IMG/VR virus record: IMGVR_UViG_3300042923_000607
Location: 52,240 to 116,239 of that record
Source: a virus
DNA: 64,000 nt
Strand: one strand, 5' to 3'
Of the stretch, positions 38,848-63,903 are shown piece by piece. A program made the translations under genes and the position numbers. The notes under the pieces are model-generated. The model had not been told where the DNA came from. It saw only the letters and a program-made list of their open reading frames with translations, and did not search any database. Positions within the stretch are counted from its first letter, which is position 1. The number at the start of each line of letters is the position of its first letter.

Positions 38848-38881
38848 TTGTCTCCTTTCTCTGCCAAATATCCGTTTTATG

Positions 38882-39964
38882 CTATTTAATGCTTTTATTT
38901 AAATTCATAAATAATCTATCTAATCCCTTTTCAAAAGCTCCAATTCCTGAAAATAAAGACAGCATTTTCACTTCATTCATAACCTCTGGCAAAACCTTAT
39001 GTAGTTCTTTAAATATGTAATATGGAATAGTAGTAACAATTGAATTACCGGCTTGTTTAGATATCTGTATGTCTGTTACTCCAGCCTTTTTAGCTTTATA
39101 ATAATCTTTATCATCAAATCCCATTAGTCTCATACGCTCTTTTGCAGTCATAAATCTAATTCTATCTTTTGATTCAATTACAACTAATCCTTGTTGAGAG
39201 GCAGTTAGGGTAGGGCAAATGCAACCCTTACCTTGAACCCTTCCTCTTCTTGTCTTACTCATAGGATATGATAGATCTGCAATCCCTCCTAGATCACAAT
39301 TAATGTATCCCTTTTTAGTAGCTTGTGAAATTGGTATGGTGTCATCAATTTCTTCTTTTAAATATCTCCCAATCTTTAATAAATTATTGTTTAATATAAC
39401 ATCAGCTGATATATAGTAAGATTCGTCAGCGTTATCTTCAAGAAAATCTTGTGCTATACAATACAGCTCCTGTTTGACGGGAAACTTAAATTCACCATTA
39501 TCTATATCTTTCCGAATGCTTACGATAAATACTCTTTCTCTCGATTGAGGTATATCATAATCTTTTGAACATAATATTTTATAGTAGGTGTTATATCCGG
39601 CAGCTTCTAAGTCGTTTAAAATAGTGTTAAATTCATTTATAAACTTCTTGGAAAGCAAGTTTCCCACATTTTCTATTATTGATATACAAGGTTTATTTGC
39701 TTTTAATATTCTCATTCCATCATAATATAGTCCGCTTCTTGTATTGTTCCCCATTAAATCTTTAAAGCCAATCATATTGCCAGCCTTAGAAATGTCTGTA
39801 CATGGGAATCCCCAAGTCATCAGATTAAAATTATCAATTTCCTTTTCATTAACCTTTTTTATGTCTCCCAAATTAAGACTTGTATTTGTGTTATGTATTG
39901 CACAATATGATTTGATTGCATGCTTATCTAGTTCGCAAAAGTTAACTAATTTATATTTTTTCAA
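38882..39964 (-). CDS. C5 cytosine DNA methyltransferase, circularly permuted
   Basis: GFPC, ENV, PQSRER, KQAGNS; motif I (SLFSGIGAFE) at the C-terminus. Confidence 0.9.
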   Translation of the reverse strand: MKKYKLVNFCELDKHAIKSYCAIHNTNTSLNLGDIKKVNEKEIDNFNLMTWGFPCTDISKAGNMIGFKDLMGNNTRSGLYYDGMRILKANKPCISIIENVGNLLSKKFINEFNTILNDLEAAGYNTYYKILCSKDYDIPQSRERVFIVSIRKDIDNGEFKFPVKQELYCIAQDFLEDNADESYYISADVILNNNLLKIGRYLKEEIDDTIPISQATKKGYINCDLGGIADLSYPMSKTRRGRVQGKGCICPTLTASQQGLVVIESKDRIRFMTAKERMRLMGFDDKDYYKAKKAGVTDIQISKQAGNSIVTTIPYYIFKELHKVLPEVMNEVKMLSLFSGIGAFEKGLDRLFMNLNKSIK

Positions 39965-40081
39965 TCCTGCTTTCTATTGGTTGCGCAACCATTTACCTAG
40001 GATTATTTCCCTTTCTTTTATGTATTGTTTAATATCTCTATTATCAATCTAAATAAAACGTTAGTTTGGTGTATATTTTAT

Positions 40082-40126
40082 GACTATATATTGTGTTTAT
40101 TAATGTTTACAACACTATATATTGTA
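40082..40126. promoter_or_regulatory. Tandem NrdR-box-like sites
   Basis: CTATATATTG at 40084 and 40115 (31 bp apart). Confidence 0.55.
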
Positions 40127-40390
40127 ATACTTATTTTCTTTTTCTTCCCTCCGGCTTTCCTCTCCTGACACGATGCAGCAACTCAATATAACCATAGTTA
40201 AAATACCCGACACAAATCCAATTGTTAAATTAATCATTTTCTTCATCCTTTTCATTAAAATCCTCATGTAGTTGTTTGTTATATCTTCTTCTTAATCTTT
40301 CTTCTTCTGCTATGTAATAATCTAAAATATCGTAGTTATCCGGGATTATGTCTTTCAAATATGTACCTCTCCTTTATGTGTTTATGTTTG

Positions 40391-41053
40391 TTATTTATAA
40401 AATGAGTGCCCGCTATTATCTGTGAACAAATATTTTAAGGCCAAGAACCACTTCTTATTTTTTGATGATTTCACATCGTTTGGGTTACAAAAAAACAATG
40501 CCTCGTTAACGACTCCATTAAGTAAAATTTCATCTACTGCTTTCCTGGTATCATCTGTTATAATGACTTCATAATATCGTTTGTCCGCTATTGGCGAAAA
40601 CTGCCTTTTTTGGAATACTACTTTCTCAATTGTATCTGGGAATTCATCGCTTTCTAATCTATTAATTATCACACTAACAACGTTTTTCTTTGATTCTATA
40701 TCTCCACCTGTTACTTCAGCTTCGGTAATTCTTTCAAGTATTTCAACCTCACTCTTGCTGAAATTATATTTATATGTATCCTTAGCACCAGAGAGAGGTT
40801 TTGATTTCTTTTTACTCTCTCCAGTGGTAGATGGGGTGGGTGTTACAGTAGGAGTTATATATTCAACACCAATCGTTGGTGTAGGTGTCGGATCGCTAAT
40901 ATCCGACTGCGTGTAATAAATCTCATACTTATATTCTCTGCCTTCCTCATGAACGGAAGACTTATTCTTTTGCTTCCACTCAAATGAGCTGACTAGTAAG
41001 GTCATGGCGATTACTACAATTAAGCCGCCACTTAGTAGACTCTCTTTTCTCAT
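40391..41053 (-). CDS. SleB/CwlJ-like cell wall hydrolase (Hydrolase_2) with N-terminal TM
   Basis: EAE, V..VIINR....FPDTI..VVFQ..QFSP, ALFF, H.FY. Confidence 0.88.
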   Translation of the reverse strand: MRKESLLSGGLIVVIAMTLLVSSFEWKQKNKSSVHEEGREYKYEIYYTQSDISDPTPTPTIGVEYITPTVTPTPSTTGESKKKSKPLSGAKDTYKYNFSKSEVEILERITEAEVTGGDIESKKNVVSVIINRLESDEFPDTIEKVVFQKRQFSPIADKRYYEVIITDDTRKAVDEILLNGVVNEALFFCNPNDVKSSKNKKWFLALKYLFTDNSGHSFYK

Positions 41054-41086
41054 TTTGTGTTCCTTTCATTATGTTTTATTTGTTAG

Positions 41087-41590
41087 TTATTCAATAATCT
41101 CTATTTTTATCTTTCTTCCATTGAATCGGTCAAGTATATCCGAGATATCAATATCGCCCAGGAGAACTTCTTTCCAACCGTATGCATCATAAGTCACGTT
41201 TACCGTCCCTACGTATTTTGTAATTTGAGCATCTAGGAATCTATTTCTCAATGTTGCATATATTATGTCTTCGCTTAAGTAATTCCCTAGTGGCAAAGCA
41301 TCATCCATCCCATCAGTAAAATCAATGATATTTCCATTTTTGAGCAATAGATATATATTAAATCTATAAAACCCAAATCCATCCACTGGTGAATATCCGT
41401 CTACTTGATCAAAAGTCCTATAATCAGATGCTGTTATTTCATCCTTAAACTCCGCTTTGAGTTTTTCTAATGCCCTATAAACATTCATCGTGTATTCTTC
41501 TCTTCTGTCTATGCAATTGCTTTCGTGTCTTTTATAACTCAGGTATCCTTCTATGTCTTCTCCGCAGCTTTCACAATTATACTTACTCAT
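41087..41590 (-). CDS. Hypothetical protein with N-terminal zinc finger
   Basis: C..C...H...C; ATG at 41590 after GGAGG. Confidence 0.65.
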   Translation of the reverse strand: MSKYNCESCGEDIEGYLSYKRHESNCIDRREEYTMNVYRALEKLKAEFKDEITASDYRTFDQVDGYSPVDGFGFYRFNIYLLLKNGNIIDFTDGMDDALPLGNYLSEDIIYATLRNRFLDAQITKYVGTVNVTYDAYGWKEVLLGDIDISDILDRFNGRKIKIEIIE

Positions 41591-41742
41591 ATTAACCTCC
41601 AGATAATATTTTAATGTTGTATATGTTATATAGTATGCTATATTCATTAACTTGTTACTAGAATTTACTCTGGGGTATATGTACGATTAGTTTTTCATTC
41701 TGTATAGTTCTAGCTCTAAGCAACTTTTCTCCTTTCAATTAC

Positions 41743-41771
41743 ATTATATGTTCTATATGTTATTTTGTCAA
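41743..41771 (-). promoter_or_regulatory. Consensus sigma-A promoter whose spacer is the repeated operator motif
   Basis: TTGACA-AAATAACATATAGAACA-TATAAT. Confidence 0.85.
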
Positions 41772-41808
41772 CAGATTTATTTAAGATAAAATCCTAATTC
41801 TGTATCGT

Positions 41809-42147
41809 TTATTTAACTTTTTTAGCAACCCTTTCATAGACGTATCTCTCTTCGGTTAAGTTTTCTTTAATATAAATCTCCGCTTCTTCTTTTTTTGAAA
41901 ATAATGCATCAACGAAATATATCTTATTATCAGGAGACGTTTCGACACAATGTTGGAATTTCATATTCTCAGTGTCAGTTAAAATTGTCCCCATATAATA
42001 CCCACACCAAGAATCATATCCTTTAAATAGAGTTGTTGCCGTTTCTACTTCATATGGGTGTACAAACCAGCATAACCTTCCTAAATCGTACGGTAAATAC
42101 ATAACATTATCATTAACTACATTTGTATAATAATCAAAATCGTACAT
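41809..42147 (-). CDS. Hypothetical protein
   Basis: RBS plus ORF. Confidence 0.65.
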   Translation of the reverse strand: MYDFDYYTNVVNDNVMYLPYDLGRLCWFVHPYEVETATTLFKGYDSWCGYYMGTILTDTENMKFQHCVETSPDNKIYFVDALFSKKEEAEIYIKENLTEERYVYERVAKKVK

Positions 42148-42161
42148 ATTGGTTCTCCTTT

Positions 42162-42368
42162 CTATTTTATCTTATATATTTTATTGATGTCCATTTTTTT
42201 ATCTTGTGATAAAATGTCGTATTCTGATTGAGTCATTAATATGGGCATCTTTCCATACTTCCTGACTTTATTTTCAAATAAATCGTCCATTAAAAAATCT
42301 ATTAATTCTTGCTTTTCTTCTTCGTCCAAAGTTTCACTTAAATAATATTTCAATTTACCAATTGACAC
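42162..42368 (-). CDS. Hypothetical protein
   Basis: RBS plus ORF. Confidence 0.6.
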   Translation of the reverse strand: MSIGKLKYYLSETLDEEEKQELIDFLMDDLFENKVRKYGKMPILMTQSEYDILSQDKKMDINKIYKIK

Positions 42369-42901
42369 TAGGCGTTACCTCTCTCTTTGTTGATTTTCAA
42401 TGAATTGATAAAATTATTCAGTCTTTCAGCCACTCCATCGTTTCCTCCCATGTCAAAAACTGGGATGTTATGTGCCTTTGCAATTCTAATGGCCTGACCC
42501 GTTCCTCCTGAACCACTTCCATTTTTAGTCCAACAAATAATAAATGAACTTGGAGTTTTTAAATCGTACCCTAGTACTTGATAACAGTTTCTGGCTTGCA
42601 ACTTTCTAGCTCCATCAGATAATTTACTCCAATATGGGTGGAATTCTTCTGCTATTTTAAGGGCTTCCCCTGATGTGTTATATAAAGTAGATGAGGAATT
42701 TTCAAAACCTTTCCATGGAAGAAATATTTCTTTCTGGCCTCTAACACTATCACATCCAATTTCAAAAGCACTATCGGCTCCTTTAGCACCACCTGATCTT
42801 AAGACAAATCCTTTTTTCGCAAATATCATAGCAGCGTGTTCAAATTTTAGTAGCATATCTTTAGGGGTTTCTCTTGATCCTATACCTGCGTAATAAATCA
42901 T
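42368..42901 (-). CDS. SLOG/DprA-like nucleotide-binding protein
   Basis: YAGIGSRETP, LRSGGAKGAD, ARN, GGTGQA. Confidence 0.8.
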   Translation of the reverse strand: MIYYAGIGSRETPKDMLLKFEHAAMIFAKKGFVLRSGGAKGADSAFEIGCDSVRGQKEIFLPWKGFENSSSTLYNTSGEALKIAEEFHPYWSKLSDGARKLQARNCYQVLGYDLKTPSSFIICWTKNGSGSGGTGQAIRIAKAHNIPVFDMGGNDGVAERLNNFINSLKINKERGNA

Positions 42902-42926
42902 AATACTTCCTTTCTGAATAGAAATC

Positions 42927-43229
42927 TTATTTTACGTTAATTATATCATCTACAAGTTTAAACAATTCAAGCAAAGCATTCTGAACGTTATTTGTGTTAA
43001 TAACCTCATCAGACAAGTTGTCATCATTTAATTCAAGCAGCCAAAGATATTCTTTTTGATAATATGTAGCATCTCCTATAGCATCAGTTAATTTTTTATA
43101 TCTTCTTAAGTAGTTGATTGCCGTTGCTATTGCCAATGTTTCTATATTTTCTGTATAGCTACATCCTTGAACGCTTTGAGTTCCACAGGTTTGCTTTGCC
43201 CATTCAAGCCTCTTTATTAAATCTTCCAT
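42927..43229 (-). CDS. Hypothetical protein
   Basis: ATG at 43229 after AAGGAG. Confidence 0.6.
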   Translation of the reverse strand: MEDLIKRLEWAKQTCGTQSVQGCSYTENIETLAIATAINYLRRYKKLTDAIGDATYYQKEYLWLLELNDDNLSDEVINTNNVQNALLELFKLVDDIINVK

Positions 43230-43257
43230 TATTTCTCCTTTTATAAATAATTTCTTT

Positions 43258-43590
43258 TTATTTATCTTTGATGGTATACAAATCTCCATCTTTTACCAAT
43301 ATTTCATATTTTTCATTGAACTCAATCAAGCTAACTTCATTACTTATTGTAACTTTGTATTCATATTTGCCAGTATTGAATCTTATAGGTTCTTCTATCA
43401 TCATCATTATTGATATAAAAGCTGTACAAGCTATAATGATACCTAATGCCCTAAGTATAACATGTTTGTGCTCTATGACTAAGTACAATCCGTAAAACAG
43501 TAAAATGCAAGCAACAATTACAATTATTATATTAATTTCAGTATTTGTTTCATATATTTGTATCTTACTTAATACGTCCAATCCATCCAA
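43258..43590 (-). CDS. Two-TM membrane protein
   Basis: Two hydrophobic segments; YKVTI...VS..EF.EKYEI. Confidence 0.7.
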   Translation of the reverse strand: MDGLDVLSKIQIYETNTEINIIIVIVACILLFYGLYLVIEHKHVILRALGIIIACTAFISIMMMIEEPIRFNTGKYEYKVTISNEVSLIEFNEKYEILVKDGDLYTIKDK

Positions 43591-43606
43591 TTAATTCACC
43601 TCCAAA

Positions 43607-43819
43607 TCAATGTTTGATAGCATAGTTTTTTATTTTTTCTTTAAACTCATCTCTTGTACATCCATAAAAAGATATTCTATTCAGTTGAAGTTTTTTGATT
43701 AAATACAGTTCCCTCTCACAAGACTCTAGCCAACATTCATCTTTGTTAGTTTTTTGTTCTTTGTCTTGAATCCTGGCGATTTCAGTTCTTAGCAAATATT
43801 CACATATCAATTCGTTCAA
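43607..43819 (-). CDS. Hypothetical protein
   Basis: RBS plus ORF. Confidence 0.6.
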   Translation of the reverse strand: MNELICEYLLRTEIARIQDKEQKTNKDECWLESCERELYLIKKLQLNRISFYGCTRDEFKEKIKNYAIKH

Positions 43820-43866
43820 AGATACAACTCCTTTCTTAAATCACGATAAAACGACTCTTTCATACA

Positions 43867-44103
43867 CTATTTTTCATTAGTATCAACTAAATCCATAGGT
43901 CTGAAATGCCTAATGAATCCAACAGTACTTGTTTTGTCTATCGTGTGTTCACACTTTACAATACTCTTCGTTTTATCAGGGCTGTTCCATTGCCCTTTTT
44001 TATATATTTCTAACACCTTAACCCATCCATAGTATTGAGTGAATTGTCCGCCTGTATTATTCAATCGATAATATTTCCCAACTTGAATATCTTGTAGTCT
44101 CAT
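43867..44103 (-). CDS. Hypothetical protein
   Basis: RBS plus ORF. Confidence 0.65.
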   Translation of the reverse strand: MRLQDIQVGKYYRLNNTGGQFTQYYGWVKVLEIYKKGQWNSPDKTKSIVKCEHTIDKTSTVGFIRHFRPMDLVDTNEK

Positions 44104-44135
44104 TTAGATTTCCTTTCTTAATTAGTGAAGCAAAT

Positions 44136-44540
44136 TTAGATTTGGTCTACTTTACCATTATTGAAAAACCATTTCCATGTAGCTTCATCTTCTCCTTCAA
44201 AACTTAGATAAGAATCAGATTCAACATATTGAGCTAAGGAATTAAAGAACACATCTTCGTCCCCATATTTCTCTCCCGTAAATTCTACATCGCATATGTC
44301 TCCGATTGAATTATATGTAGGCTTATATCTTATTTCTTCCAATGCTTCTTCGAGCGTCGTACTTTCTAGAACTGTTTGTGTGTCAACCCAACTAAAATGA
44401 GGATGCTCTTCCCCATTGATATAATCTTTACAGGTCATATTTTCAGGAATAAACACGCTTTTCAAGCTTTCCAAAGCTTTTGCAAAATTCTCTTTTTTAA
44501 TAGAAAAGCTACTATCTGTCATTTCAATGCAATATCCCAT
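44136..44540 (-). CDS. Hypothetical protein
   Basis: RBS plus acidic ORF. Confidence 0.7.
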   Translation of the reverse strand: MGYCIEMTDSSFSIKKENFAKALESLKSVFIPENMTCKDYINGEEHPHFSWVDTQTVLESTTLEEALEEIRYKPTYNSIGDICDVEFTGEKYGDEDVFFNSLAQYVESDSYLSFEGEDEATWKWFFNNGKVDQI

Positions 44541-44602
44541 ATTCTTATTTCTCCATTTCTTGATCTAAAATTTGACTCGTGAACAAAATACATCTTTGAT
44601 AA

Positions 44603-44881
44603 TTATTTAATACCATCATTGTATAAAAGAGGATCACCTTCTGAGTTGAGTAGGACTGTCAGTCCAGCACCGTTGCCTCTTTTTATAAACAGATACTGCA
44701 CATTGGTGTTCTTATCTACATATATCCAACCATCTAATGAACTGACTTTCATAAATCTACTATCTTCTGCTTTTGTAGTATATGTACCTTCTGATGATGG
44801 CAGTGTAATTCCCCTTCCACATCCTGATAATGTTATAATGAAGCATAAAATTAAGCTTAGAACTAACATCTTCTTTCTCAT
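44603..44881 (-). CDS. Small lipoprotein (DUF6440-like)
   Basis: LSGC lipobox; VDK.T.VQYL...G.GLTVLL...G.P. Confidence 0.7.
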   Translation of the reverse strand: MRKKMLVLSLILCFIITLSGCGRGITLPSSEGTYTTKAEDSRFMKVSSLDGWIYVDKNTNVQYLFIKRGNGAGLTVLLNSEGDPLLYNDGIK

Positions 44882-44927
44882 TTCTCTCTTATTCCTTTCT
44901 AAGTAAAATGTACCTTTTATGTGCATA

Positions 44928-45344
44928 TTATTTTTGAAATCTATTCTTCCACTCCATAGTACTATGTATTTCTTCATCGTCTTCATTCTTTTTATACTGA
45001 TCAATCTTTGTTCTATACTTCTCAATGTAAGGAATGATGTCTCCCGCATATCCAGAACCAAACTCAAATTTACAATCATAATAATCTTCATATTTTGATC
45101 CATCCCATTCTGTAGTTATGCTCTCTAAGAACGGACAATCTTTACACTCATATTCTTTTTCTTTACAAGCTATATGCTTAAGAGCATACCAATCTTCTAT
45201 TACATCTATCCTCTCTAATAAAGACAAGTTGTTCTTTCTTGATGCAGTATCAATATCGTTTTGAAGAATATTTAATTGCTCATTAATATGTTTCATAGCC
45301 ATCTTGGCCTTTGATAATGGTCTATCTTCCCATGTTTTACTCAT
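44928..45344 (-). CDS. Hypothetical protein
   Basis: RBS plus ORF with a Cys cluster. Confidence 0.65.
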   Translation of the reverse strand: MSKTWEDRPLSKAKMAMKHINEQLNILQNDIDTASRKNNLSLLERIDVIEDWYALKHIACKEKEYECKDCPFLESITTEWDGSKYEDYYDCKFEFGSGYAGDIIPYIEKYRTKIDQYKKNEDDEEIHSTMEWKNRFQK

Positions 45345-45454
45345 TTAAACTCCTTTCAAATTTCACAAACAAACCCTCATTTGGTTGACAATTCGTGTTA
45401 TATTTATTAGTTATCCGTGGGTATATACATAATTTATACATATGTTTTAAATAA

Positions 45455-45655
45455 TTATTCACGACTCCACTTGCCATCAAACGTATCGTCCACACACTCC
45501 TTATGTCCGCAATCAGGGCATTCTAAATGTGAACATGAAGTTCTTTTTCTTCCGGTCTTATATTGCCATTCCCCCGTTGTTTTATATTCTTCTTCTGTGA
45601 ACCAAATTGGATGTAGTTCACTTCCGCATCTCGGACACTCACCGTATTTACTCAT
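45455..45655 (-). CDS. Zinc-ribbon protein
   Basis: CPRCG...CPDCG. Confidence 0.7.
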   Translation of the reverse strand: MSKYGECPRCGSELHPIWFTEEEYKTTGEWQYKTGRKRTSCSHLECPDCGHKECVDDTFDGKWSRE

Positions 45656-45688
45656 AAAACTCCCTTCTGAATCAATCGTTGATTTTAT

Positions 45689-45976
45689 TTATAATTTACC
45701 ATATACTACAATCTCATAAAGATTAACATTATCTGATTCATTATTAATTACAGTAAACCAGCCTTGATCGTTTAATTCTTCTTGTCTTTCATAAACCTGT
45801 TCCAATTCCAAATTGTGAATCTTCCAAATTTCAATTAATTGAAACCCGTTATTTAGTTCATTTTTGTCTTTAACAGAATCAATTATCCATGACGCAGCTT
45901 TTCCTATTGATAGAATGGGAATCCATCCAATTAGGAAAAACAAGTATAAAAACATAATTAAACCGTCTTTCATCAA
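45689..45976 (-). CDS. Hypothetical membrane protein
   Basis: N-terminal TM, RBS. Confidence 0.6.
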   Translation of the reverse strand: MMKDGLIMFLYLFFLIGWIPILSIGKAASWIIDSVKDKNELNNGFQLIEIWKIHNLELEQVYERQEELNDQGWFTVINNESDNVNLYEIVVYGKL

Positions 45977-46092
45977 TTATCCTCCTCAATCCAAGTAACA
46001 CCAACGAGTTTGCTAAATTCTAACGCATTTTCTCTTTCAGCAATTATTTTATACTGTCCATATCCATAGAATATCAAATACATATTTTCCCC

Positions 46093-46320
46093 CTACATAG
46101 TTATTAGCTTATAGTCATTTACTGCAAAATCGGTTATTCTTTCAATATCTTCCATTTCCTTTAGTGTAAACCAATTATCAAACCAGATCGAATAATTTTC
46201 TTCATTAACATTCATATGTAAATAATACTTTTTAGGACAACCGTATTGAATCTGAATTCCCCAAATTGAACCGAAATGTTCATTGCCATTCTTTACAACC
46301 TTAAACGTATTATCTTTCAT
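46093..46320 (-). CDS. Hypothetical protein
   Basis: RBS plus ORF. Confidence 0.6.
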   Translation of the reverse strand: MKDNTFKVVKNGNEHFGSIWGIQIQYGCPKKYYLHMNVNEENYSIWFDNWFTLKEMEDIERITDFAVNDYKLITM

Positions 46321-46891
46321 GGGACTCCTTCCTGTTTAATATTTTAATTGCTTGTTTTACGTGTTTTCTTTTTAAGCCAGTGTCCTCATATGAGAGTCCT
46401 TGAATCATATCTCCCTCTGCCACCATACTTGTTTTAACCAATTCTTTGCCTACAAAAGATTGTAAGTCAAACGACTCATCATCAAGTATTACAAATCTAT
46501 CAACTTTAATATTAGTTTCTCTTAACCACTGATTTATTTCATCTTCTCTTTTGCCATGTTTGCTACTAGGAGTTATATCTATTACTTCTAGTTTGTATTT
46601 TGTAAGCAGGTCGTGGAGCCTTTTTTGATCATAATGCTTTTTCTCATATGGGGTATTCCAATATCCATGCCTCCAAGAACTTGACATTACTATTTTAGCC
46701 CCGGTCTTTCTTATTATTTTACTAAGTCGTCTTACATATTTTTCTTTCACTTCGAAGATTTTTAGAAAATTACGTACATATCGTGTGGGTATTTTTAATG
46801 CTTTTGATACATTAATAACAAAATACGTCCACTTGTTATATCCATTTAGAACGCCGTCCACGTCGAGGAAGCATATTTTAATAGTAATCAC
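46310..46891 (-). CDS. HAD-domain protein (Swiss-army-knife RNA-repair-like)
   Basis: FLDVDGVLN, IVMSSSWR, R.DEI..WL, FVILDD, GL. Confidence 0.8.
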   Translation of the reverse strand: MITIKICFLDVDGVLNGYNKWTYFVINVSKALKIPTRYVRNFLKIFEVKEKYVRRLSKIIRKTGAKIVMSSSWRHGYWNTPYEKKHYDQKRLHDLLTKYKLEVIDITPSSKHGKREDEINQWLRETNIKVDRFVILDDESFDLQSFVGKELVKTSMVAEGDMIQGLSYEDTGLKRKHVKQAIKILNRKESHER

Positions 46892-47044
46892 TCCTTTACT
46901 TTGCCAATTAATTTTTCAATTTCTTCATATGTTAACCAGTCCATCCTACTAACAGCTTCAACTCTCTTCGTTTCGCAGTGCTTCTCATAAGCAAGATAGA
47001 TAAACATTAATAACATTAGAATTATTATCATTTAAACTCCTTTC

Positions 47045-47242: not shown

Positions 47243-47266
47243 GTGTATTCCTTTCTCTATAAAACT

Positions 47267-47557
47267 CTAGTTCTTTGTAGATTTTAATTCCTCGATAATA
47301 AGAGAGTCTTTTAATATCTCATTTTCTAAATGTACTTTTAGCATCTCGACTACTTCAGATTTAGCGTCGTCTAACGTTTTAGCCTTCAACCATGAATAGT
47401 CATCTTCTTTATATGTTCTTGCGATAGATCCTTTATCTCCTTGTTTTAAGTATGCGACGTCATAACACCCATTGAACACAGATAAGACAAATTCATTTTC
47501 ATCATTTCTCCATTTAAAGCCTATCTCAACCACCTCCTTATTCAAACAAAAGTTCAA
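47267..47557 (-). CDS. Hypothetical protein (start probably near 47532)
   Basis: ORF; AAGGAGG near 47535. Confidence 0.55.
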   Translation of the reverse strand: MNFCLNKEVVEIGFKWRNDENEFVLSVFNGCYDVAYLKQGDKGSIARTYKEDDYSWLKAKTLDDAKSEVVEMLKVHLENEILKDSLIIEELKSTKN

Positions 47558-47559
47558 TT

Positions 47560-47757
47560 TTATATCTCAATATCAATTAACGGGCATTCAGCAGCACGCT
47601 CCGATGTTACTTTTGTGGTACCATTTAGATGTACACCTTTTCCACTGCCATAGCACAATCTGTCCGGATTCTCATACGGCCTCTTTTCGGAAGAATAGTA
47701 AACGCACTTATTACAGCACTTCGGGAAATCAGCCATGACACTTTTTGAAACTATCAT
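47560..47757 (-). CDS. Cys-rich hypothetical protein
   Basis: P.CC.KC...R...CPL. Confidence 0.6.
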   Translation of the reverse strand: MIVSKSVMADFPKCCNKCVYYSSEKRPYENPDRLCYGSGKGVHLNGTTKVTSERAAECPLIDIEI

Positions 47758-47782
47758 AATATTATCATCCTCTCTTCATCTA

Positions 47783-48058: not shown

Positions 48059-48118
48059 TTTACATCCTTTCTAAAAAACTCAATCAAACTTTTGTTTTAC
48101 GTTGTTCTATATGTTATA

Positions 48119-48521: not shown

Positions 48522-48546
48522 TTGTTTTATATGTTATTTAGTAAAA

Positions 48547-49930: not shown

Positions 49931-49964
49931 TTTTATCCCTTCCTTTCACAATAGAAATATACTT

Positions 49965-50435
49965 TTATTTACCTTTTAGCTCTTTGATAAATTCTTTTAC
50001 TAATTCTTCTTCCATGATACTTATTCTACCTTGTTTTATATATTGTCTAACTACGTCTGCCTGACAATTGATGGTATTTCTACCCTTAAACATGTCATGA
50101 AAATCGTCAAACTGGTTAGCATATTCCACTAGCTCAGGATGCATATCTAAATACTTTACCCATAACAATTTATAGAATGGAGTTAAATATTTTTTGTCTA
50201 ATCTTATACCATTAATAACTAAGTAATCTGGTTGTTTACCTTTCGCTTTATCTATTGTGGTATCATTAAATCTCTTGCAGCTTTGATAGTGGGTTTCTAT
50301 GTTTGCGTTTTTGCCATACAAGGTTATCCAAGCAAAGAAAGCTGAAAACCTCTTATCTCCTTTTGATGAACACTCTAAAACATTTAGCAATAATATTCCT
50401 CCGTTTCTTTTATAACCAAATAGCTGTTTCATCAT
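49965..50435 (-). CDS. Hypothetical protein, possibly NADAR-like
   Basis: LECSSKG...FSAF.A, IE..YQ..K.F, CQA. Confidence 0.5.
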   Translation of the reverse strand: MMKQLFGYKRNGGILLLNVLECSSKGDKRFSAFFAWITLYGKNANIETHYQSCKRFNDTTIDKAKGKQPDYLVINGIRLDKKYLTPFYKLLWVKYLDMHPELVEYANQFDDFHDMFKGRNTINCQADVVRQYIKQGRISIMEEELVKEFIKELKGK

Positions 50436-51373: not shown

Positions 51374-51496
51374 TAATCATCCTTATCGTCTGGCCAGACA
51401 TTTTACCTAGGATTATTTTACCTTTCTTTAATGTTGTAGCTATTACTTCTATTTGTTTAATATTTCTATTATAATTCAATCAAATCGTAGATTGAT

Positions 51497-55571: not shown

Positions 55572-55599
55572 TGTGTTGTATAAGTTGTATATTACTCTC

Positions 55600-55860
55600 T
55601 TATAACTCTTCTAAGTAATATTCAGTATTCATAGTTGTGATATGTAACTTCTTTCCACTTTCAGAAAATGATTCTATAGGAGAAGTCCTCATCATTCTTC
55701 CGGAGTCTCCACTCCATACAAAGCAGAAACTATTTCCTACTTGCATAAATTCTTTATATATTATTTCTCCTGTCATATCAGGACAAATTGACCGGATATC
55801 TTCTAATGCCGTTAATTTAACAACTCCACTTTTATCTGTAACATTAATTATCTTATACAT
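55600..55860 (-). CDS. Hypothetical protein
   Basis: RBS plus ORF. Confidence 0.65.
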   Translation of the reverse strand: MYKIINVTDKSGVVKLTALEDIRSICPDMTGEIIYKEFMQVGNSFCFVWSGDSGRMMRTSPIESFSESGKKLHITTMNTEYYLEEL

Positions 55861-56257
55861 TTAAACTTCCTTTCTCCAAACAGTTATATCATCTGCATAA
55901 CAGCAATGTTCTAACACGTCATTTTGAGACAAGTCACATCTATCATCATTTGTATCTGTGTTAAACATGCAATCTTTGTGATCGCAATATGTATCATTAA
56001 ATCCACTTTTCTTGTCAATAATTATCATATAATCAATGCCTTTCTTTATTTATTGATACTAAACTCAACTTTGCTTGTATTTTTCTATTAATCGTTTAGC
56101 TTTCAGGAGCCCAATCCATACTCCCTCATTTCTTCCACTATCAAATATGTCATCATCCTTTTCATCTTCATTGAAAACTATTTTACAATAATGATCAATT
56201 AGCTCCTGTAATTCATTACGCAAATCATTTACTTTCAATCACCTCCAATTAGTCAGG

Positions 56258-56653
56258 CTATCTTAAATCTTCATAATACAATATCTGGTATTCCTCTGGT
56301 ACATTTGATGCTGCTAGATTATAAGTCTTTATTTCATTAATTAATTCATGTTGGTTTCTATCTTTAGTACCAATACTAAATCTTTTATCATCAAATAATA
56401 TTAGTTGATCAAATCTTCTTCCTCGTAATCTCATTCCATATGTAATAGCCATAATCTTTGTCCCATCGTTTAAATATAATGAATGGTGCCATGGGTTTTT
56501 AATATATTGCTTTATCTGCTCTTTGTTGTTGTCTGCGAATTGCCGTAGTCCATAATTTGATAATTCACTGGTATATCCTAGTAATGCAATTTCCAATACT
56601 CTTGGTTCATCTTCATATCCAACAACATATGTTGCCATTCTAATCACCTCCAC
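56258..56653 (-). CDS. Hypothetical protein
   Basis: RBS plus ORF (start probably 56638). Confidence 0.6.
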   Translation of the reverse strand: MEVIRMATYVVGYEDEPRVLEIALLGYTSELSNYGLRQFADNNKEQIKQYIKNPWHHSLYLNDGTKIMAITYGMRLRGRRFDQLILFDDKRFSIGTKDRNQHELINEIKTYNLAASNVPEEYQILYYEDLR

Positions 56654-56666
56654 TTAGATAAAAGAG

Positions 56667-56948
56667 TTATTTCATAGTGTCGTAATCTAACACATATTGT
56701 AACCCTTTAATTATCTTTTGAATTTCGTCTTTAGTACAATTTAGCACATTGACATTACTAGGCAATAAAACTACCTTATTATCTCTAAATGTAGTTTGTA
56801 ATCCGTCATATAATATTTTTTGTTCATGTTGTGTTAATGTGTGAGGCTCATACTCACAAATTATGTAGTCATTGGATAATGGATTAATTAATGTAACTCC
56901 TCGTTCATTTTTTAACTTTGTCTTACTCAATATCTCTTTAAATCCCAT
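56667..56948 (-). CDS. Hypothetical protein
   Basis: RBS plus ORF. Confidence 0.6.
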   Translation of the reverse strand: MGFKEILSKTKLKNERGVTLINPLSNDYIICEYEPHTLTQHEQKILYDGLQTTFRDNKVVLLPSNVNVLNCTKDEIQKIIKGLQYVLDYDTMK

Positions 56949-56988
56949 TTAAACTCCTTTCAAATGAAAACCTGAATTGGTATTGTTA

Positions 56989-57238
56989 TTATTCATTATA
57001 GCTGTAGTATGGTAAGTAGCACCACTCAACAACCTTATAATAACTTCCTTCACAATCAAAATATTTGTATCCGTTATCATCTATGTATCTACCAACCATA
57101 GGAATGCGATATGCGATAAATCGTCTATCTTTTTTAAAGCAAGGCTCGTATTTGTTGCAATAACATAATACGTCTGTTTTAAATGTGGCTTTTCTTTTTC
57201 TGCATCTTTAAATCACTATCTTCTAAATTATAAACCAT
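56989..57238 (-). pseudogene. Frameshifted small gene
   Basis: RBS and ATG at 57238 with a stop after 19 codons; another frame continues FKTDVLCYC...VVEWCYLP to TAA at 56989. Confidence 0.45.
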
Positions 57239-57276
57239 ATTATCTCCTTTCTATAAATCCAAACCAAAGTGGAATT

Positions 57277-57489
57277 TTACTTAGAAAAATATTTTTCATA
57301 ATCTTCTTTTGTACTATCCATTTTATTAATTGCTAAATCATCATCCCATTCAAATTCTTCTGACGAATCAACATTAATAAATTCAGGATATAAATCATAC
57401 ATACGAAGTCCACAAACAACTAAATCTTCAATATCGCTATCTCCTTCAATATCTGTGACGAACATCGTAACCTTATGCACCTTTGCCAT
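57277..57489 (-). CDS. Hypothetical protein
   Basis: RBS plus ORF. Confidence 0.65.
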   Translation of the reverse strand: MAKVHKVTMFVTDIEGDSDIEDLVVCGLRMYDLYPEFINVDSSEEFEWDDDLAINKMDSTKEDYEKYFSK

Positions 57490-57545
57490 AGTTGAAACTC
57501 CTTTCTATTAATTCAATATAAATCTATAATTTGAAATATATTTTA

Positions 57546-57803
57546 TTAATACCTATGTCTAATTGCCATATATAAAAATTTCTTGTTATTTCGATTTATT
57601 GATATCATTGAATCATCAATAATCTCGTATGAGTATGTATTATCATCATCTTCTATAATTCCAGTAGTAAGTAATGTTTCTTTTAAAGTTGATTCGTTAT
57701 TAGTATCAATTGCAAATATCTTATCCTGACATGCTAAAACCATATGTCTTCCAATTGAATCAACTATAGTATCAATTCCACAAGGGTTTCCAACATAAAC
57801 CAT
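57546..57803 (-). CDS. Hypothetical protein
   Basis: RBS plus ORF. Confidence 0.6.
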   Translation of the reverse strand: MVYVGNPCGIDTIVDSIGRHMVLACQDKIFAIDTNNESTLKETLLTTGIIEDDDNTYSYEIIDDSMISINRNNKKFLYMAIRHRY

Positions 57804-57840
57804 TCTGCTCTCCTTTCTAAATCAATACCAATTGATATAT

Positions 57841-58320
57841 TTATCTTGTATATGCTTTACTTAAATCAAAATTCCATGTCTTAGGAATTAATTCAGGATT
57901 ATCAATGACATTTCCTAACTTAACAATTGAATCCCAAGGATCAAAAGATTTAACATAGTCATCACAGTATCCATACTGAACAACAAATTTTCCGTTTTTA
58001 TAAATGATTAATCCTATTTCATCTTTGATATTAAAGTATTTTAAAGATATTTTAACAATATCTAATTCATATAATGAATCTCCGTTATCATCATTCCTAT
58101 CAACAAATTGCCCTACAGTGTCTTTAATTACTTCTGTGTGATCTATATATCCTAATCCAGATGTATTAAAATCAACTATGTATGCCCTATGTGAATTTAT
58201 ATCTTTGTTGCCATAGCAACTGTCATAATAAAACCCACCATAAATCCAACTAGGTTTATGTGTTTCTGCATTGAATACAAATGGTTTAACTGGTTTTGCT
58301 CTAAAATATATTCTTCTCAT
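57841..58320 (-). CDS. YopX-family protein
   Basis: I.FRAK, W.YG, TVGQF...D.NG...YE.DIV, GN..DNPEL. Confidence 0.85.
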   Translation of the reverse strand: MRRIYFRAKPVKPFVFNAETHKPSWIYGGFYYDSCYGNKDINSHRAYIVDFNTSGLGYIDHTEVIKDTVGQFVDRNDDNGDSLYELDIVKISLKYFNIKDEIGLIIYKNGKFVVQYGYCDDYVKSFDPWDSIVKLGNVIDNPELIPKTWNFDLSKAYTR

Positions 58321-58344
58321 TATATATTCCTTTCATTGTTATAT

Positions 58345-58584
58345 TTATTTGCTACTACGTTCCACTAAATTCATCATGAAATCATATAATGTATTTCTTT
58401 TGTCGTTAGCAGTTAGCTTAAACATTTCGTTTGGTTCACCATGTTCTCCAGCATCTATATAGCTATCTTCAAAGTCAGAAGTATTCAATCGTTCAAATAT
58501 GAATTCAATAACATCTTCTTCCTCTTCAAAACTTCCTTGAAATGCGTGCCACCAGTCATTATTTAGTTTTGCTATATGTACCAC
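58345..58584 (-). CDS. Hypothetical protein
   Basis: RBS plus ORF. Confidence 0.6.
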   Translation of the reverse strand: MVHIAKLNNDWWHAFQGSFEEEEDVIEFIFERLNTSDFEDSYIDAGEHGEPNEMFKLTANDKRNTLYDFMMNLVERSSK

Positions 58585-58820
58585 TTCCTTTCATTTCCTA
58601 CCAAATTGATATTTGTTTTATATAATTACGACAACATTCCTATCAGAGTGAAGTAAATAAGATATAAAAATTTCATCAATATCTTTATAGTCATTTTTTG
58701 TAATAACTACATCAACATCACCCACTATATTTTTTATGTTTTCTAATTCATTAATCACATCAGATATCCTTTTCACTTATTCACCCCCTTTTGAATATAA
58801 AATCCAGATTTGACTGTCTT

Positions 58821-60707: not shown

Positions 60708-60724
60708 TTAAAAGATTGATTTTA

Positions 60725-60934
60725 TTATCTTGCCGATTGTAATACTATCTTATTATTACATTGCGGACATTTTAAATATTTTTGAGCATAAGAATCTCGT
60801 TGTGTTACATATTTTTCTTCTTCCTTAATATCTTCAAGCATATAACTTAATAACGCACCGCAATTATTACATTCAACTCTATTTTTTGTCCCTTGTTTAA
60901 TAATCTCTATCATAAATACGCCTCTTCTTTCCAT
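60725..60934 (-). CDS. Zinc-ribbon protein
   Basis: CNNCG...CPQC. Confidence 0.7.
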   Translation of the reverse strand: MERRGVFMIEIIKQGTKNRVECNNCGALLSYMLEDIKEEEKYVTQRDSYAQKYLKCPQCNNKIVLQSAR

Positions 60935-60970
60935 GTAAAATCACAATTCTATTCGCAATTTATTGTACTA

Positions 60971-61431: not shown

Positions 61432-61475
61432 ATATTTTTTCTCCTTTCAAATTCAACATCAAAGACCGATTTTGT

Positions 61476-61972: not shown

Positions 61973-62015
61973 AATTTTATTCTCCTTTTAATTTTTATTA
62001 AATCAAATACGTTTT

Positions 62016-62285
62016 CTATAGTGATACTTTTGGTAATTTTGCAAACAATTCTACTCTATCTGTTACATCTTCTGTTCCATACCCATGAGGATTTGCTACA
62101 TAAAATTTAGAGTTATTATACCAAGCTTTCTCAAATCCATAACTAGAAACCCAATCGGAATAATCCAAATCACCATCTTCACACTCTTTCCAATTCTTAG
62201 GTTTTAGCACAACTAGATACCATCCGAAGTTAATTATTGGATTACTATATTTGAATTCTTCCCATTCTATTAATGTTGTTTTCAT
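62016..62285 (-). CDS. Hypothetical protein (DUF551-like)
   Basis: I.W......P...GWYLV...V..FA.LP. Confidence 0.55.
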   Translation of the reverse strand: MKTTLIEWEEFKYSNPIINFGWYLVVLKPKNWKECEDGDLDYSDWVSSYGFEKAWYNNSKFYVANPHGYGTEDVTDRVELFAKLPKVSL

Positions 62286-62297
62286 ACTACACTCTCC

Positions 62298-62633
62298 TTA
62301 TCGTAATTTTAAATTCCAACTTTCTGAAAACCCATAACAATGTTTAGACTCGTAATTATTATTAGCTATATAAAATTCTTTCATAGTTTCTGAATTATCG
62401 CCATCTTTAGTCCATACAACTTTATCGCCACTCATCACCATATCAACTTCGTTTTCTTTTAGTTCTTTCAACTTACAAACCGTTAAGTCATGATTAGCAA
62501 AACTCCGATTAGAACATCCGTGATGTGCAATTACAGTTCTATCTTCTAGTACTAAATCATAACGCCCAGCACCATCAAATAAAGAGCTGTTATTACATAA
62601 TACATAAGCAATTTTCATAAATTCTCCTTTCAA
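62298..62633 (-). CDS. Hypothetical protein
   Basis: RBS plus ORF (start probably 62618). Confidence 0.6.
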   Translation of the reverse strand: MKGEFMKIAYVLCNNSSLFDGAGRYDLVLEDRTVIAHHGCSNRSFANHDLTVCKLKELKENEVDMVMSGDKVVWTKDGDNSETMKEFYIANNNYESKHCYGFSESWNLKLR

Positions 62634-62666
62634 AAAATCACTCCAAATATTCTATTTATTCTCCTA

Positions 62667-63200
62667 TTACTCTTCGTTTCTATCTAAAACCACAACACTT
62701 AAATCTGTTTTATTTGTAATGTCAATCATCTGTTTATAACACTCATTCATCGCTACGCTAAATTCATCTTGAGTGATTTCAGTCCATTTCTTAAAACTAG
62801 ATATTGAACAAAATATTCCTTCATTACAGAAAGTAAATGGTTCGCATTCGATTGTTGCATCTGGATATGTATCATATGCCTTCATTAATTTTCTGTTAAA
62901 CTTATAGAATAAAGGGAGACTAAATTCAAAGCATTCTACATGATATTCATTTTCACTGACTTCACTAATGATTTTAATATATTTTGTAAATTTTTCATCA
63001 TTCCATCCATCATTGGATAATCTAGTACTTTCAGTTTTATAACATTTACCTACATATTCTTTATGTGATGCAATCGTATCTAGCTTTTTCTGTGTGTCAG
63101 ATTCTTTAAGTTTTCTTTGAATTTCTCTCATTTGATTTTCTAAATCTTTTTCTTCTTCTCTTGTCATATTTATCTTCCTTTCCGAATGACTAGCAAACAT
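62667..63200 (-). CDS. Hypothetical protein
   Basis: RBS plus ORF (start probably 63167). Confidence 0.65.
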   Translation of the reverse strand: MFASHSERKINMTREEEKDLENQMREIQRKLKESDTQKKLDTIASHKEYVGKCYKTESTRLSNDGWNDEKFTKYIKIISEVSENEYHVECFEFSLPLFYKFNRKLMKAYDTYPDATIECEPFTFCNEGIFCSISSFKKWTEITQDEFSVAMNECYKQMIDITNKTDLSVVVLDRNEE

Positions 63201-63221
63201 TCATTTGATATTGATTTTTTA

Positions 63222-63623
63222 CTATTGAATATTCAACTGTTCTTTTAATTTAGCAATCTTTTGATTTATAAGATAAATCTGAGATTCCAAATATTCTGGT
63301 TCACGTTTTAAATTAGCTATATCAACTAACTTTTCACTAACAGACATTAAGGTACTGGTATTCCAATTTTTAACTAAGTCTGCTAAATCATATGTATCAC
63401 GATATCTACTACTAAATCTTATATGATCAAGCATATATGATGCAATCGGCATAGAAATTTGTTCTAATTCTAGTTTACATATTTTTAATCTTTCGTTGTA
63501 TTTATCTCTCTTGTTTTGTAATTCATGTATCTCACCAATTAAGGAACATTCGCTAGTATTTTTATCTGCGTTACAAAAGGGTTCTGGCTGATTAGTTACT
63601 TGCTTATTTTTCTTAAATATCAT
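63222..63623 (-). CDS. Hypothetical coiled-coil protein
   Basis: RBS plus ORF. Confidence 0.6.
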   Translation of the reverse strand: MIFKKNKQVTNQPEPFCNADKNTSECSLIGEIHELQNKRDKYNERLKICKLELEQISMPIASYMLDHIRFSSRYRDTYDLADLVKNWNTSTLMSVSEKLVDIANLKREPEYLESQIYLINQKIAKLKEQLNIQ

Positions 63624-63903
63624 ATTTTATCCCTTCCATAATCATTTTTCCTACAATCTTATCTGACATAATAAAACCATGTGACATCATAAAGTCTATA
63701 CTTTTCATATCTTCGGTGAAATCTTCTGGTTTAATTTTTATTTTTTCTCCATCTTCATTTATATAAAACATTCCACCTTTACCTTTTTCAACAGTATTTA
63801 CGTCTAATCCATATTGTTCAGCTATCTTAGTCATTTCTTCTATACTTAATATGACCGCCCTCTCCCTTCTAAATTCAAAATAAAAACAGTGATTTATTGG
63901 CAT
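63613..63903 (-). CDS. Hypothetical protein (start uncertain)
   Basis: ORF; RBS near 63860. Confidence 0.5.
   Translation of the reverse strand: MPINHCFYFEFRRERAVILSIEEMTKIAEQYGLDVNTVEKGKGGMFYINEDGEKIKIKPEDFTEDMKSIDFMMSHGFIMSDKIVGKMIMEGIKYDI

Follow-up and report, generated by a model that had tools for sequence, protein, structure and literature searches.

Small accessory genes of T4-type phages are bordered by PeSL elements (promoter-early stem-loop), composites of an early promoter and a terminator hairpin that recall Botstein's 'linker' idea. Here, we describe a different short element at gene borders, an 18-bp inverted repeat with two 6-bp arms around a 6-bp centre (RYNAAA-N6-TTTNRY; referred to as the dyad), in a 64,000-nucleotide stretch of virus DNA (the window). 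The window, positions 52240–116239, takes up the right-hand 64 kb of one virus contig of 116,239 bp, which has a G+C content of 31.5% (IMG/VR record IMGVR_UViG_3300042923_000607; G000). Positions are those of the window unless another genome or record is named. We find that the dyads are phage-specific, symmetric duplex-DNA sites at gene ends in an SPbeta-type lineage with the gene pair yopQ-mrpR, and that they remain, together with their centre, while their neighbours change.

Several described systems resemble the dyads in part. Like PeSL elements (PMC2839356, PMC4122927), the dyad is a short conserved intergenic motif at which indels and replacements between close relatives end, but it contains neither a promoter nor a hairpin, the 2–14 nt between most sites and the ribosome-binding site leave no room for a promoter, and its centre is junction-specific and conserved. 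It shares with the pdif/dif modules of Acinetobacter plasmids (PMC6449649, PMC13141974) the many inverted-arm copies, the variable 6-bp centre and the presence of modules in varied contexts, and the pdif mechanism has likewise been deduced mostly from comparative data. However, pdif sites have two different 11-bp arms for the host XerC/XerD proteins, whereas the dyad has 6 bp per arm with both arms alike, the host chromosome is without it and no Xer-type pair is implicated. Integron attC sites share with the dyad the place after the stop codon of a small gene without a promoter, and in the window's family the dyad likewise moves together with the gene upstream of it; whereas attC is active as a single strand folded on long, imperfect arms, dyads cannot fold. 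No IntI or attI was seen when the recombinase genes were scanned against Pfam and PHROGs only, without an IntI-specific test. The KorB sites of plasmid RK2 (PMC11790492, PMC12704722) are also dispersed palindromes on a mobile element, and a ParB-fold gene stands there beside a repressor gene, as may be the case for the yopQ-mrpR pair, but they are a dozen identical 13-bp palindromes, whereas there are ∼50 dyads with individual centres and binding by YopQ is putative. Stoperators of Cluster A mycobacteriophages (PMC9283540, PMC6550527) are similarly repressor sites found by the dozen across the genome of a temperate phage, most of them in short gaps between genes; in contrast to the symmetric dyads, they lack symmetry, have an orientation that follows transcription and each bind a monomer (PMC9283540). 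Finally, SPBRE (PMC10516654) is a repeated intergenic element of the lysogeny system in the same phage family, but this ∼15-bp AATATGTATA-like motif stands at some ten promoters, and the dyad is a second, separate element.

Exact copies of the pattern numbered 24 in the window, compared to a mean of 6.65 (standard deviation 2.57, maximum 16) in 100 dinucleotide shuffles. The excess was confined to the six-base spacing: when the spacer length k was varied from 0 to 15, k = 6 gave 24 matches in the window and every other k gave 2–10, and for the whole G000 genome 51 matches at k = 6 stood against 8–19 at other spacings. All of this excess was intergenic. Using our own crude open reading frame (ORF) calls to divide the genome, we counted 39 intergenic copies at k = 6 versus 1–6 at other spacings, whereas the 12 copies in coding DNA were not in excess. 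One-mismatch copies in the intergenic part showed little excess (52 at k = 6 versus 19–63). There, a weight-matrix scan yielded 54 sites with a score ≥9 versus 6–12 at other spacings, corresponding to ∼47 true sites genome-wide or about one per 2 kb, and 44 sites versus 1–6 at a score ≥10; an iterative matrix that included the flanks drifted and was dropped. By gene block, weight-matrix sites were present at 26 of 78, 8 of 49 and 20 of 74 gene junctions of G000.

The motif had been proposed in a preliminary description of the window, made from its letters alone, which listed 25 copies between 38863 and 63897. The motif is real and all 25 strings are present where they were placed, although not all of them count equally: 13 are exact and two more (49951 and 62002) are strong, with scores ≥10, while nine are borderline and three are probably chance matches. 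Among the borderline copies, we expect about half of those at 41786, 42918, 60935, 63192 and 63880 (score 9–10) and about a third of those at 44129, 45671, 51479 and 60708 (score 8–9) to be real, whereas 45368, 56964 and 58600 score <8, near background. The array is also wider than was thought. Two copies inside the interval, at 50415 and 59594, had been missed, exact intergenic copies occur elsewhere in the window (the entries from 7094 to 32336 in Table 1), and 22 more lie at genome positions 1–35 kb.

The site generally sits at or just after the upstream stop codon and before the next ribosome-binding site, as first described. Of 33 sites with a recognisable upstream ORF, 30 start between −11 and +10 nt from the end of the stop codon. 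The offset from the site to the ribosome-binding site ranges from 2 to 28 nt, with most sites at 2–14 nt, and some sites have no ribosome-binding site after them. Site occupancy differed with spacer length: 22 of the 37 spacers of 40–60 nt hold a site, compared to only one of the 64 spacers shorter than 25 nt. Dyads are also found in convergent or divergent gene gaps (window 32336; SPbeta 57147 and 128076).

The dyad forms no hairpin as RNA. The energies of forced hairpins ranged from −2.0 to +5.7 kcal/mol, and the outer arm positions gave 69 Watson–Crick pairs out of 117, against 75.6 with shuffled arms, i.e. no arm covariation. To describe its symmetry, 112 sites from six genomes were each oriented by the downstream ribosome-binding site. 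Position 1 (A100/G12) then equalled the complement of position 18 (A100/G12), position 2 (T99/C13) resembled its mirrored counterpart (T93/C19) and so did position 3 (A67 G26 C16 T3 versus A66 G23 C20 T3). The left half and the complemented right half are thus equal in base counts, which argues for a duplex-DNA site for a symmetric dimer rather than an RNA signal or a folded attC. T is avoided at position 3 and A just inside the A-run, the rest of the centre is near uniform and the information content beyond the 6-bp arms is ∼0–0.5 bit. Host regulator sites (ComK A4-N5-T4, CodY, IHF and the UP element), checked by the spacer scan only, differ in spacing or arrangement.

That the spacer differs in each copy holds within one genome, where none of the 54 G000 sites shares its centre with another. 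Since well under one shared pair is expected by chance, however, this lack of duplicates says little, and the centre is not free: it is kept at the same junction in relatives. In alignments spanning a site, identity was 136/138 for the bases of the centre, 273/276 for those of the arms and 1720/1840 for those of the 40-nt flanks. Comparisons anchored by one flank gave one mismatch in 156 centre bases versus 12 in 312 arm bases, the latter being too high through ascertainment, since a pair was admitted when just one of its members matched the pattern; three of the 13 differing comparisons were left out, as an indel in the flank had shifted the register. Two G000 18-mers recur identically at syntenic places in the distant relative G003, although only 21–32 of 70 flanking bases are identical there and the neighbouring proteins are 50–65% identical. 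At G000 17524, the comparison with G003 shows an 18-bp island with both flanks unlike. All of these sequence comparisons agree and point to the 'variable' centre being a conserved label specific to its junction, and not the tolerated heterology that had been suggested for it.

To see where related genomes part from each other around the sites, we relied on mosaic relatives with ∼90% identity. Megablast found no close relative of the window in the phage collection and blastn gave scraps only, an IMG/VR search returned distant kin only (G001–G007) and a metagenome scan only short contigs. The breakpoints of the window's family were therefore read solely from the coordinates of contigs, from four soil or rhizosphere runs, matched to window positions 38801–58800. 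Among the matches listed, four breakpoints fall 1–7 nt from a site edge (40046, 41782/41784, 42922 and 44131), and in each case the site remains with the upstream gene. At the dyad at 41786, the similarity of two relatives stops 1–3 nt from the edge, and at the one at 42918 similarity to contig X5 resumes at 42922, which leaves the core attached to the gene upstream. Three further breakpoints among these matches are at start codons (44541, 45659 and 57490). Breakpoints inside the 6-bp core, as a cassette system would predict, were not observed in any of ∼12 placeable cases; they instead fell at the outer edges of sites, at ribosome-binding sites and at start codons. In X5, a 37-nt island (45659–45695) consisting of stop codon, site and ribosome-binding site is kept, while both adjoining genes have <85% identity. 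Relative X4 lacks the two genes at 57491–58335, and the 34-nt joint in their place holds an exact dyad with the centre ATATCA, the same centre, read by eye, as in the window dyad 57827–57844 after the first of these genes.

The SPbeta family gave a similar picture when SPbeta 82–134 kb was compared with 50-kb stretches of phi3T, Goe11, Goe14 and SPR. For 18 of 34 pairwise shared perfect dyads, flank identity dropped to ≤10/20 directly from the site edge. The same collapse was seen for only 598 of 13,863 shared intergenic 18-mers (4.3%) and 1,661 of 153,687 of all shared 18-mers (1.1%), and intragenic matches to the pattern retained both flanks. Modules bounded by sites thus recur in different contexts, by which pdif modules are recognised as well, and both data sets place the sites at the edges of exchanged gene modules, as the preliminary description had supposed. 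The collapsing cases cover six of the 12 distinct perfect dyads (centres CTAATA, TGATAA, GATCAA, TATTCC, GAATAC and TCGGTC). One case is TATTCC in phi3T, an 18-bp island neither of whose flanks is alike; in another, the copy at the same locus of phi3T is reverse-complemented. Between SPbeta 132746 and Goe11, identity collapses at the edge although 16 nt lie between the stop codon and the site. Viewed from the breakpoints, 17 of 180 intergenic breakpoint clusters were ≤5 bp from a site edge, compared to an expectation of ∼2% of intergenic positions. What is special about the sites is where within the spacer the break falls, which is partly forced in tight spacers.

We also considered laboratory hybrids of phi3Ts and SPbeta. 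In Hyb2, the crossovers lie within parent-identical stretches of 1.4 and 4.9 kb that adjoin dyads and were not placeable, and Hyb1 is phi3Ts-like throughout the region. The one hybrid junction described as 'non-homologous' and 'following yosA' in a preprint (10.1101/2020.05.06.055103) falls near the TATTCC dyad. We also observed a second, TTAGAATAAAAATAAAATTA-like repeat, located directly after some SPbeta dyads (113681–113700 and 132764–132783) and directly before other dyads in phi3T (locus L035, ∼29530–29555 and ∼42663–42688).

The sites are widespread among relatives of SPbeta. SPbeta itself has 33 copies at k = 6 versus 7–19 at other spacings, including 15 perfect ATAAAA-N6-TTTTAT copies, and enrichment was also found in phi3T, Goe11, Goe14, SPR, SPbetaL1 and SPbetaL3, as well as in the IMG/VR genomes G003 (37 versus 7–29) and G004 (17 versus 1–9). 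Prophages located via their YopQ-like protein gave 13 versus 0–3 for a Paenibacillus locus (20 kb), 8 versus 0–5 for an Anaerocolumna metagenome-assembled genome (MAG) and 6 versus 0–4 for a Clostridium MAG. The whole Paenibacillus prophage (G008 contig C203, ∼105,000 to >235,000) holds 65 copies versus 5–22 at other spacings; it is at least 130 kb long, has 33% G+C in a 56% G+C chromosome and carries YopP-, YopQ-, YopR-, YonN- and YonO-like genes. In the complete 7.9-Mb Paenibacillus genome, ATRAAA-N6-TTTYAT occurred 74 times and a control pattern eight times. Of the 50 places listed, 43 fall in two low-G+C prophage contigs, which indicates that the host does not use the site.

No enrichment was detected in G001, G002, G005, G006 and G007. 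In G001, G002, G006 and G007, neither the MrpR-like protein nor the YopQ profile found a match, whereas the positive control G003 scored 1e-179. YonO, MrpR and YopQ are the only non-structural genes common to G000, G003, G004, SPbeta and the Paenibacillus prophage. Judged from these gene contents, the spread of the site follows the yopQ-mrpR pair, and relatives without the pair are without enrichment. Some dyad copies are annotated in the GenBank record of SPbeta, as 'stem_loop' only. A term search of the MrpR paper, its preprint, an SPbeta review and a preprint on SPbeta relatives, with the 1999 SPbeta genome paper, which may mention it, outside the search, found no description of the dyad.

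The products of this gene pair are the prime candidates for binding the dyad. In SPbeta, MrpR has the fold of a tyrosine recombinase but no longer the function of one, and it binds to SPBRE in ten promoter regions (PMC10516654). We rederived SPBRE as a AATATGTATA-like motif in nine of the ten MrpR-bound upstream regions of SPbeta; it differs from the dyad. In G000, both genes lie outside the window next to a gene for a MazF-like protein, and the MrpR-like protein (Pfam MrpR_N_CB) appears to be a catalytically dead tyrosine-recombinase fold. For the YopQ-like protein, a language model gave a score of 0.96 to clusters in which 18–40% of the members bear DndB, and four of 30 YopQ homologues matched Pfam DndB (best E 2.6e-5). 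Its structure model (predicted local distance difference test, pLDDT, 85) had ParB-N or Noc as five of the seven best Foldseek matches, with KorB at rank 8 (probability ≤0.98, best E 7e-3), and VIA-align placed residues ∼125–275 close to PadC (Z 7.7), sulfiredoxin (6.4) and KorB (6.2), as well as pNOB8 ParB, BrxU and SspE (range 5.6–7.7). This weak but concordant evidence suggests a ParB/DndB-type nucleoside triphosphatase (NTPase) fold; DndB is a ParB-like, ATP-dependent repressor (PMC12704722). A profile of YopQ homologues against PDB sequences returned nothing useful.

The genome also encodes, outside the window, further proteins with a tyrosine-recombinase fold, as the preliminary description had considered: besides the MrpR-like protein, there is a 246-amino-acid Phage_integrase protein with the R, H-x-x-R, H and Y motifs of tyrosine recombinases. 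In SPbeta, genes with this fold are YopP and YomM. YopP had no match in G000, G003 or G004, so no recombinase family is common to all site-bearing genomes. A YonO-type polymerase was discarded as reader of the sites: YonO-like genes are present in G001 and G002, both without enrichment, and YonO uses one late promoter (PMC5467207).

G000 is a large, SPbeta-like temperate phage of the siphovirus type. Minus-strand genes extend from ∼84 kb, over the ends of the contig, as far as ∼35 kb (genome positions), and the remaining stretch has its genes, the structural ones among them, on the plus strand. The genome encodes a tape-measure protein, an integrase and two DNA methyltransferases, as well as a Rha protein outside the window. 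An 871-amino-acid protein (genome 38818–41433, plus strand, outside the window) is distantly homologous to YonO, the single-chain RNA polymerase of SPbeta (BLASTP E 4e-6 over 337 collinear residues, E range 4e-6 to 3e-7); it is without a Pfam match and shares 34% identity with a protein of a Paenibacillus prophage (E 6e-76). The gene for the anaerobic ribonucleotide reductase NrdD (52006–55364, minus strand) is split into a 399- and a 643-amino-acid ORF, and the HNH-endonuclease-like insert in the latter suggests an intein or intron. YopQ homologues suggest Lachnospiraceae/Clostridia or Paenibacillus-like candidate hosts. Near-identical pieces of window 40001–50000 were present in metagenome runs from soil, rhizosphere, fertilizer and food fermentation (word shares 0.06–0.23), so relatives of G000 are widespread.

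A 60-bp repeat with 80–95% likeness and a TTGACA-17-TATCAT promoter, found at window 48490–48552 and genome 359–421, 19735–19793 and 36514–36579 (inverted), was the only internal repeat that we found in G000; it is probably the counterpart of the SPBRE/MrpR operator-promoters. The coordinates of the dyads and of the genes discussed are collected in Table 1. Strong dyads flank the 441-amino-acid gene of the tail region on both sides, and such pairs are few in the structural arm. The regions at 39990–40045 and 51400–51478, upstream of the two methyltransferase genes, have a common motif, roughly ATTATAATAGARATATTAAACAA, on the coding strand directly downstream of the dyads at 40053 and 51479, although the two genes themselves are unlike at the DNA level.

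Table 1. Dyads of the window and genes discussed in the text (window coordinates unless marked as genome; scores are weight-matrix scores)
Feature	Coordinates	Strand	Remarks
Exact dyad	7094..7111		Structural (+) arm; score 12.9
Exact dyad	8065..8082		Structural arm, ribosome-binding site 2 nt on; score 13.2
Perfect dyad at gene end	9784..9801		Structural arm, stop codon in left arm; score 13.6
Exact dyad	24480..24497		Structural arm; score 13.6
Perfect dyad	28587..28604		At stop codon of 833-amino-acid fibre-like gene; score 13.6
Exact dyad	30124..30141		After 441-amino-acid gene 28719-30044; score 13.6
Perfect dyad	32336..32353		Gap where + and - gene blocks converge; score 13.6
Tyrosine integrase gene, 418 amino acids	33465..34721	-	phrog_1, E 7e-50; no tie to dyads
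Exact dyad, GCCAAA-tatccg-TTTTAT	38863..38880		After methyltransferase ORF 38882-39964(-), 3 nt before next ribosome-binding site; score 10.8
Exact dyad	40053..40070		Similarity to contig X5 begins 7 nt outside edge; score 12.2
Degenerate dyad, ATAAAA-tcctaa-TTCTGT	41786..41803		15 nt upstream of perfect TTGACA-17-TATAAT promoter; score 9.6
Degenerate dyad, ATAGAA-atctta-TTTTAC	42918..42935		Similarity to X5 resumes within dyad; score 9.3
Exact dyad	43846..43863		3 nt past stop codon; score 13.6
Degenerate dyad, AGCAAA-tttaga-TTTGGT	44129..44146		Stop codon within core; similarity to X4 from 44131; score 8.2
Exact dyad	44583..44600		2 nt past stop codon; score 12.2
Exact dyad	44903..44920		Ribosome-binding site 3 nt on; score 12.2
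Degenerate dyad, ATCAAT-cgttga-TTTTAT	45671..45688		Inside 37-nt island kept by X5; score 8.9
Exact dyad	47546..47563		Overlaps stop codon and start region of next ORF (our gene calls)
Exact dyad	48083..48100		Score 11.8
Near-exact dyad, ATAGAA-atatac-TTTTAT	49951..49968		Ribosome-binding site 3 nt on; score 10.7
Exact dyad	50415..50432		At stop codon of second methyltransferase gene; score 12.2
Degenerate dyad, borderline, ATCAAA-tcgtag-ATTGAT	51479..51496		Score 8.6
Exact dyad	56658..56675		Score 13.6
Exact dyad	57263..57280		Stop codon in left arm; score 10.8
Degenerate dyad, coding strand ATAAAT-ATATCA-ATTGGT	57827..57844		Stop codon in left arm; read by eye, unaligned
Exact dyad	58797..58814		Score 11.8
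Degenerate dyad, borderline	60708..60725		Ribosome-binding site 3 nt on; score 8.5
Degenerate dyad, borderline	60935..60952		Score 9.3
Exact dyad	61458..61475		Immediately past stop codon; score 12.2
Near-exact dyad	62002..62019		Score 10.3
Degenerate dyad, borderline	63192..63209		Score 9.2
Degenerate dyad, borderline	63880..63897		Score 9.3
MazF-like toxin, YopQ-like and MrpR-like gene trio	genome 20408-23140	-	Outside window; conserved in G003 and G004
YopQ-like protein gene	genome 21397-22647		Outside window; candidate ParB-fold protein

Taking these observations together, we tentatively favour, at a little under even confidence, a reading of the dyads as protein-bound, 'addressed' module joints that serve both prophage control and exchange between relatives. 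A phage-encoded protein would bind the dyad as a dimer on double-stranded DNA, the YopQ-like product (with its putative ParB/DndB-type NTPase fold) and the MrpR-like product (with a tyrosine-recombinase fold) being the likeliest binders. The sites would form an integral part of the gap that separates a stop codon from the following ribosome-binding site or promoter, with the arms (A-T-not T-A-A-A and its mirror) as the common recognition part and the 6-bp centre as the junction-specific part. Each would then act as a labelled joint: modules may be replaced on either side, while the site stays. The first role of the bound site could be prophage-wide control, as a loading site or roadblock comparable to KorB sites or stoperators. 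Its second role would be that of a preferred joining point for the DNA of co-infecting relatives, because identical centres pair only like with like.

A number of observations weigh against the joint reading. In the window's family, one gene was deleted between two ribosome-binding sites via a 9-nt microhomology (47037/47249) and another without any site (43227/43596), and the two-gene difference at 57491–58335 has no good site on either side in the window. Sites are present at ∼8% of SPbeta-family junctions, so with 17 of 180 clusters near them, site-bearing junctions are no hotter than others, and the exact-edge effect arises in part because stop codon, site and ribosome-binding site are only 0–10 nt apart. 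The counts behind the conservation of the centres are small and the comparisons phylogenetically linked; moreover, a simple operator model leaves this conservation unexplained, as a simple recombination model does the second-order selection for centres. Protein binding is deduced from the sequence of the dyads, with the YopQ-like and MrpR-like products as candidates only. For YopQ, the fold evidence is middling (every Z <8, Foldseek E >1e-3). For MrpR, binding to the dyads finds no support in the published peak list: its chromatin affinity precipitation sequencing (ChAP-seq) in SPbeta gave ten peaks, all accounted for by SPBRE (PMC10516654), and most SPbeta dyads are without a reported peak. 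Finally, the co-occurrence with yopQ-mrpR comes from nine to ten related, non-independent genomes, and the YopQ locus of Anaerocolumna xylanovorans showed no enrichment (1 versus 0–4 in the 20 kb around the gene).

Several of these points would be accommodated if the dyads were a pure control array without any role in recombination, that is, operator- or parS-like sites that silence or organise the prophage, be it as loading sites for a ParB-type YopQ clamp acting together with the repressor MrpR, as KorB and KorA act together, or as stoperator-like roadblocks. The symmetry of the sites, their dispersal at about one per 2 kb, their phage specificity and their co-occurrence with the lysogeny pair yopQ-mrpR, together with the predicted ParB-type fold of YopQ, are all consistent with this possibility, for which the KorB sites of plasmid RK2 (PMC11790492) and stoperators (PMC9283540) provide precedents. 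The junction pattern would then reflect only that recombinants are selected against if they have lost a required site to a break within a very short spacer, as tight spacers force any break that spares both site and ribosome-binding site onto the site edge, and site-bearing junctions are indeed broken no more often than others. The binding array for a regulator or nucleoid protein, named as an alternative in the preliminary description, is hence fully alive and now has a candidate protein. We nevertheless consider a purely regulatory function somewhat unlikely, as it does not account for centres that are junction-specific yet conserved, for the 18-bp islands with unlike flanks (TATTCC in phi3T and G000 17524 versus G003), for the reverse-complemented copy at the same phi3T locus or for the edge collapse despite a 16-nt gap between stop codon and site (SPbeta 132746 versus Goe11).

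These same edge-exact joints and islands would fit a site-specific cassette system of the integron or pdif kind, with a tyrosine recombinase that cleaves at the edges of the core and adds, removes or exchanges one cassette at a time. Two 6-bp arms flanking a 6-bp centre are the arrangement found in tyrosine-recombinase core sites, as had been noted early on, several genes with a tyrosine-recombinase fold are present per genome (the 418-amino-acid integrase, the 246-amino-acid protein and the MrpR-like protein in G000; YopP and YomM in SPbeta), and, as with attC, the sites in the window's family go along with the gene that precedes them. We regard such a system as decidedly unlikely, however. 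No breakpoint fell in a core, no two sites of one genome share a centre that could make them an intramolecular substrate, only 6 bp per arm are informative, there is no hairpin and no recombinase family is common to all site-bearing genomes. In addition, genes are gained and lost without sites as well, and Hyb1 and Hyb2 crossed over in long identical stretches. The integron-like capture of cassettes originally envisaged is therefore unsupported, and there is no sign of free cassettes being taken up or of circles. A signal at the RNA level, for example a processing, stability or translation element between the cistrons of a polycistronic mRNA, would fit the position of the site, which comes after the stop codon and ahead of the ribosome-binding site and in many cases ends 3 nt short of GAAAGGAG, and the lack of any canonical terminator in 20 kb of the coding strand. 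Yet the dyads have no stable fold and no covariation, with A-G mismatches as the commonest imperfect combination, the statistics of both strands are the same, something an RNA signal would have no need of, copies lie in convergent and divergent gaps and host genes are without them, making this explanation very improbable.

The addressed joints that we favour touch on an old question, namely how phage genomes keep their order despite the turnover of accessory genes (modular evolution and 'linker' sequences). As the 18-bp site marks junctions across the family, including the model prophage SPbeta of Bacillus subtilis, its function is directly testable by genetics. It also provides a first functional lead for YopQ, a core lysogeny gene without a known role. 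If the sites were only operators, they would constitute a second genome-wide control layer beside MrpR/SPBRE. It is further conceivable, though on balance unlikely, that SPbeta-like phages across Bacillota carry a built-in module-exchange system with common arms and a private 6-bp 'address' per junction, for which the yopQ-mrpR pair or another phage recombinase may supply the machinery. If so, pairing and recombination would occur only with the same junction of a co-infecting relative, and accessory genes would swap freely while gene order is kept.

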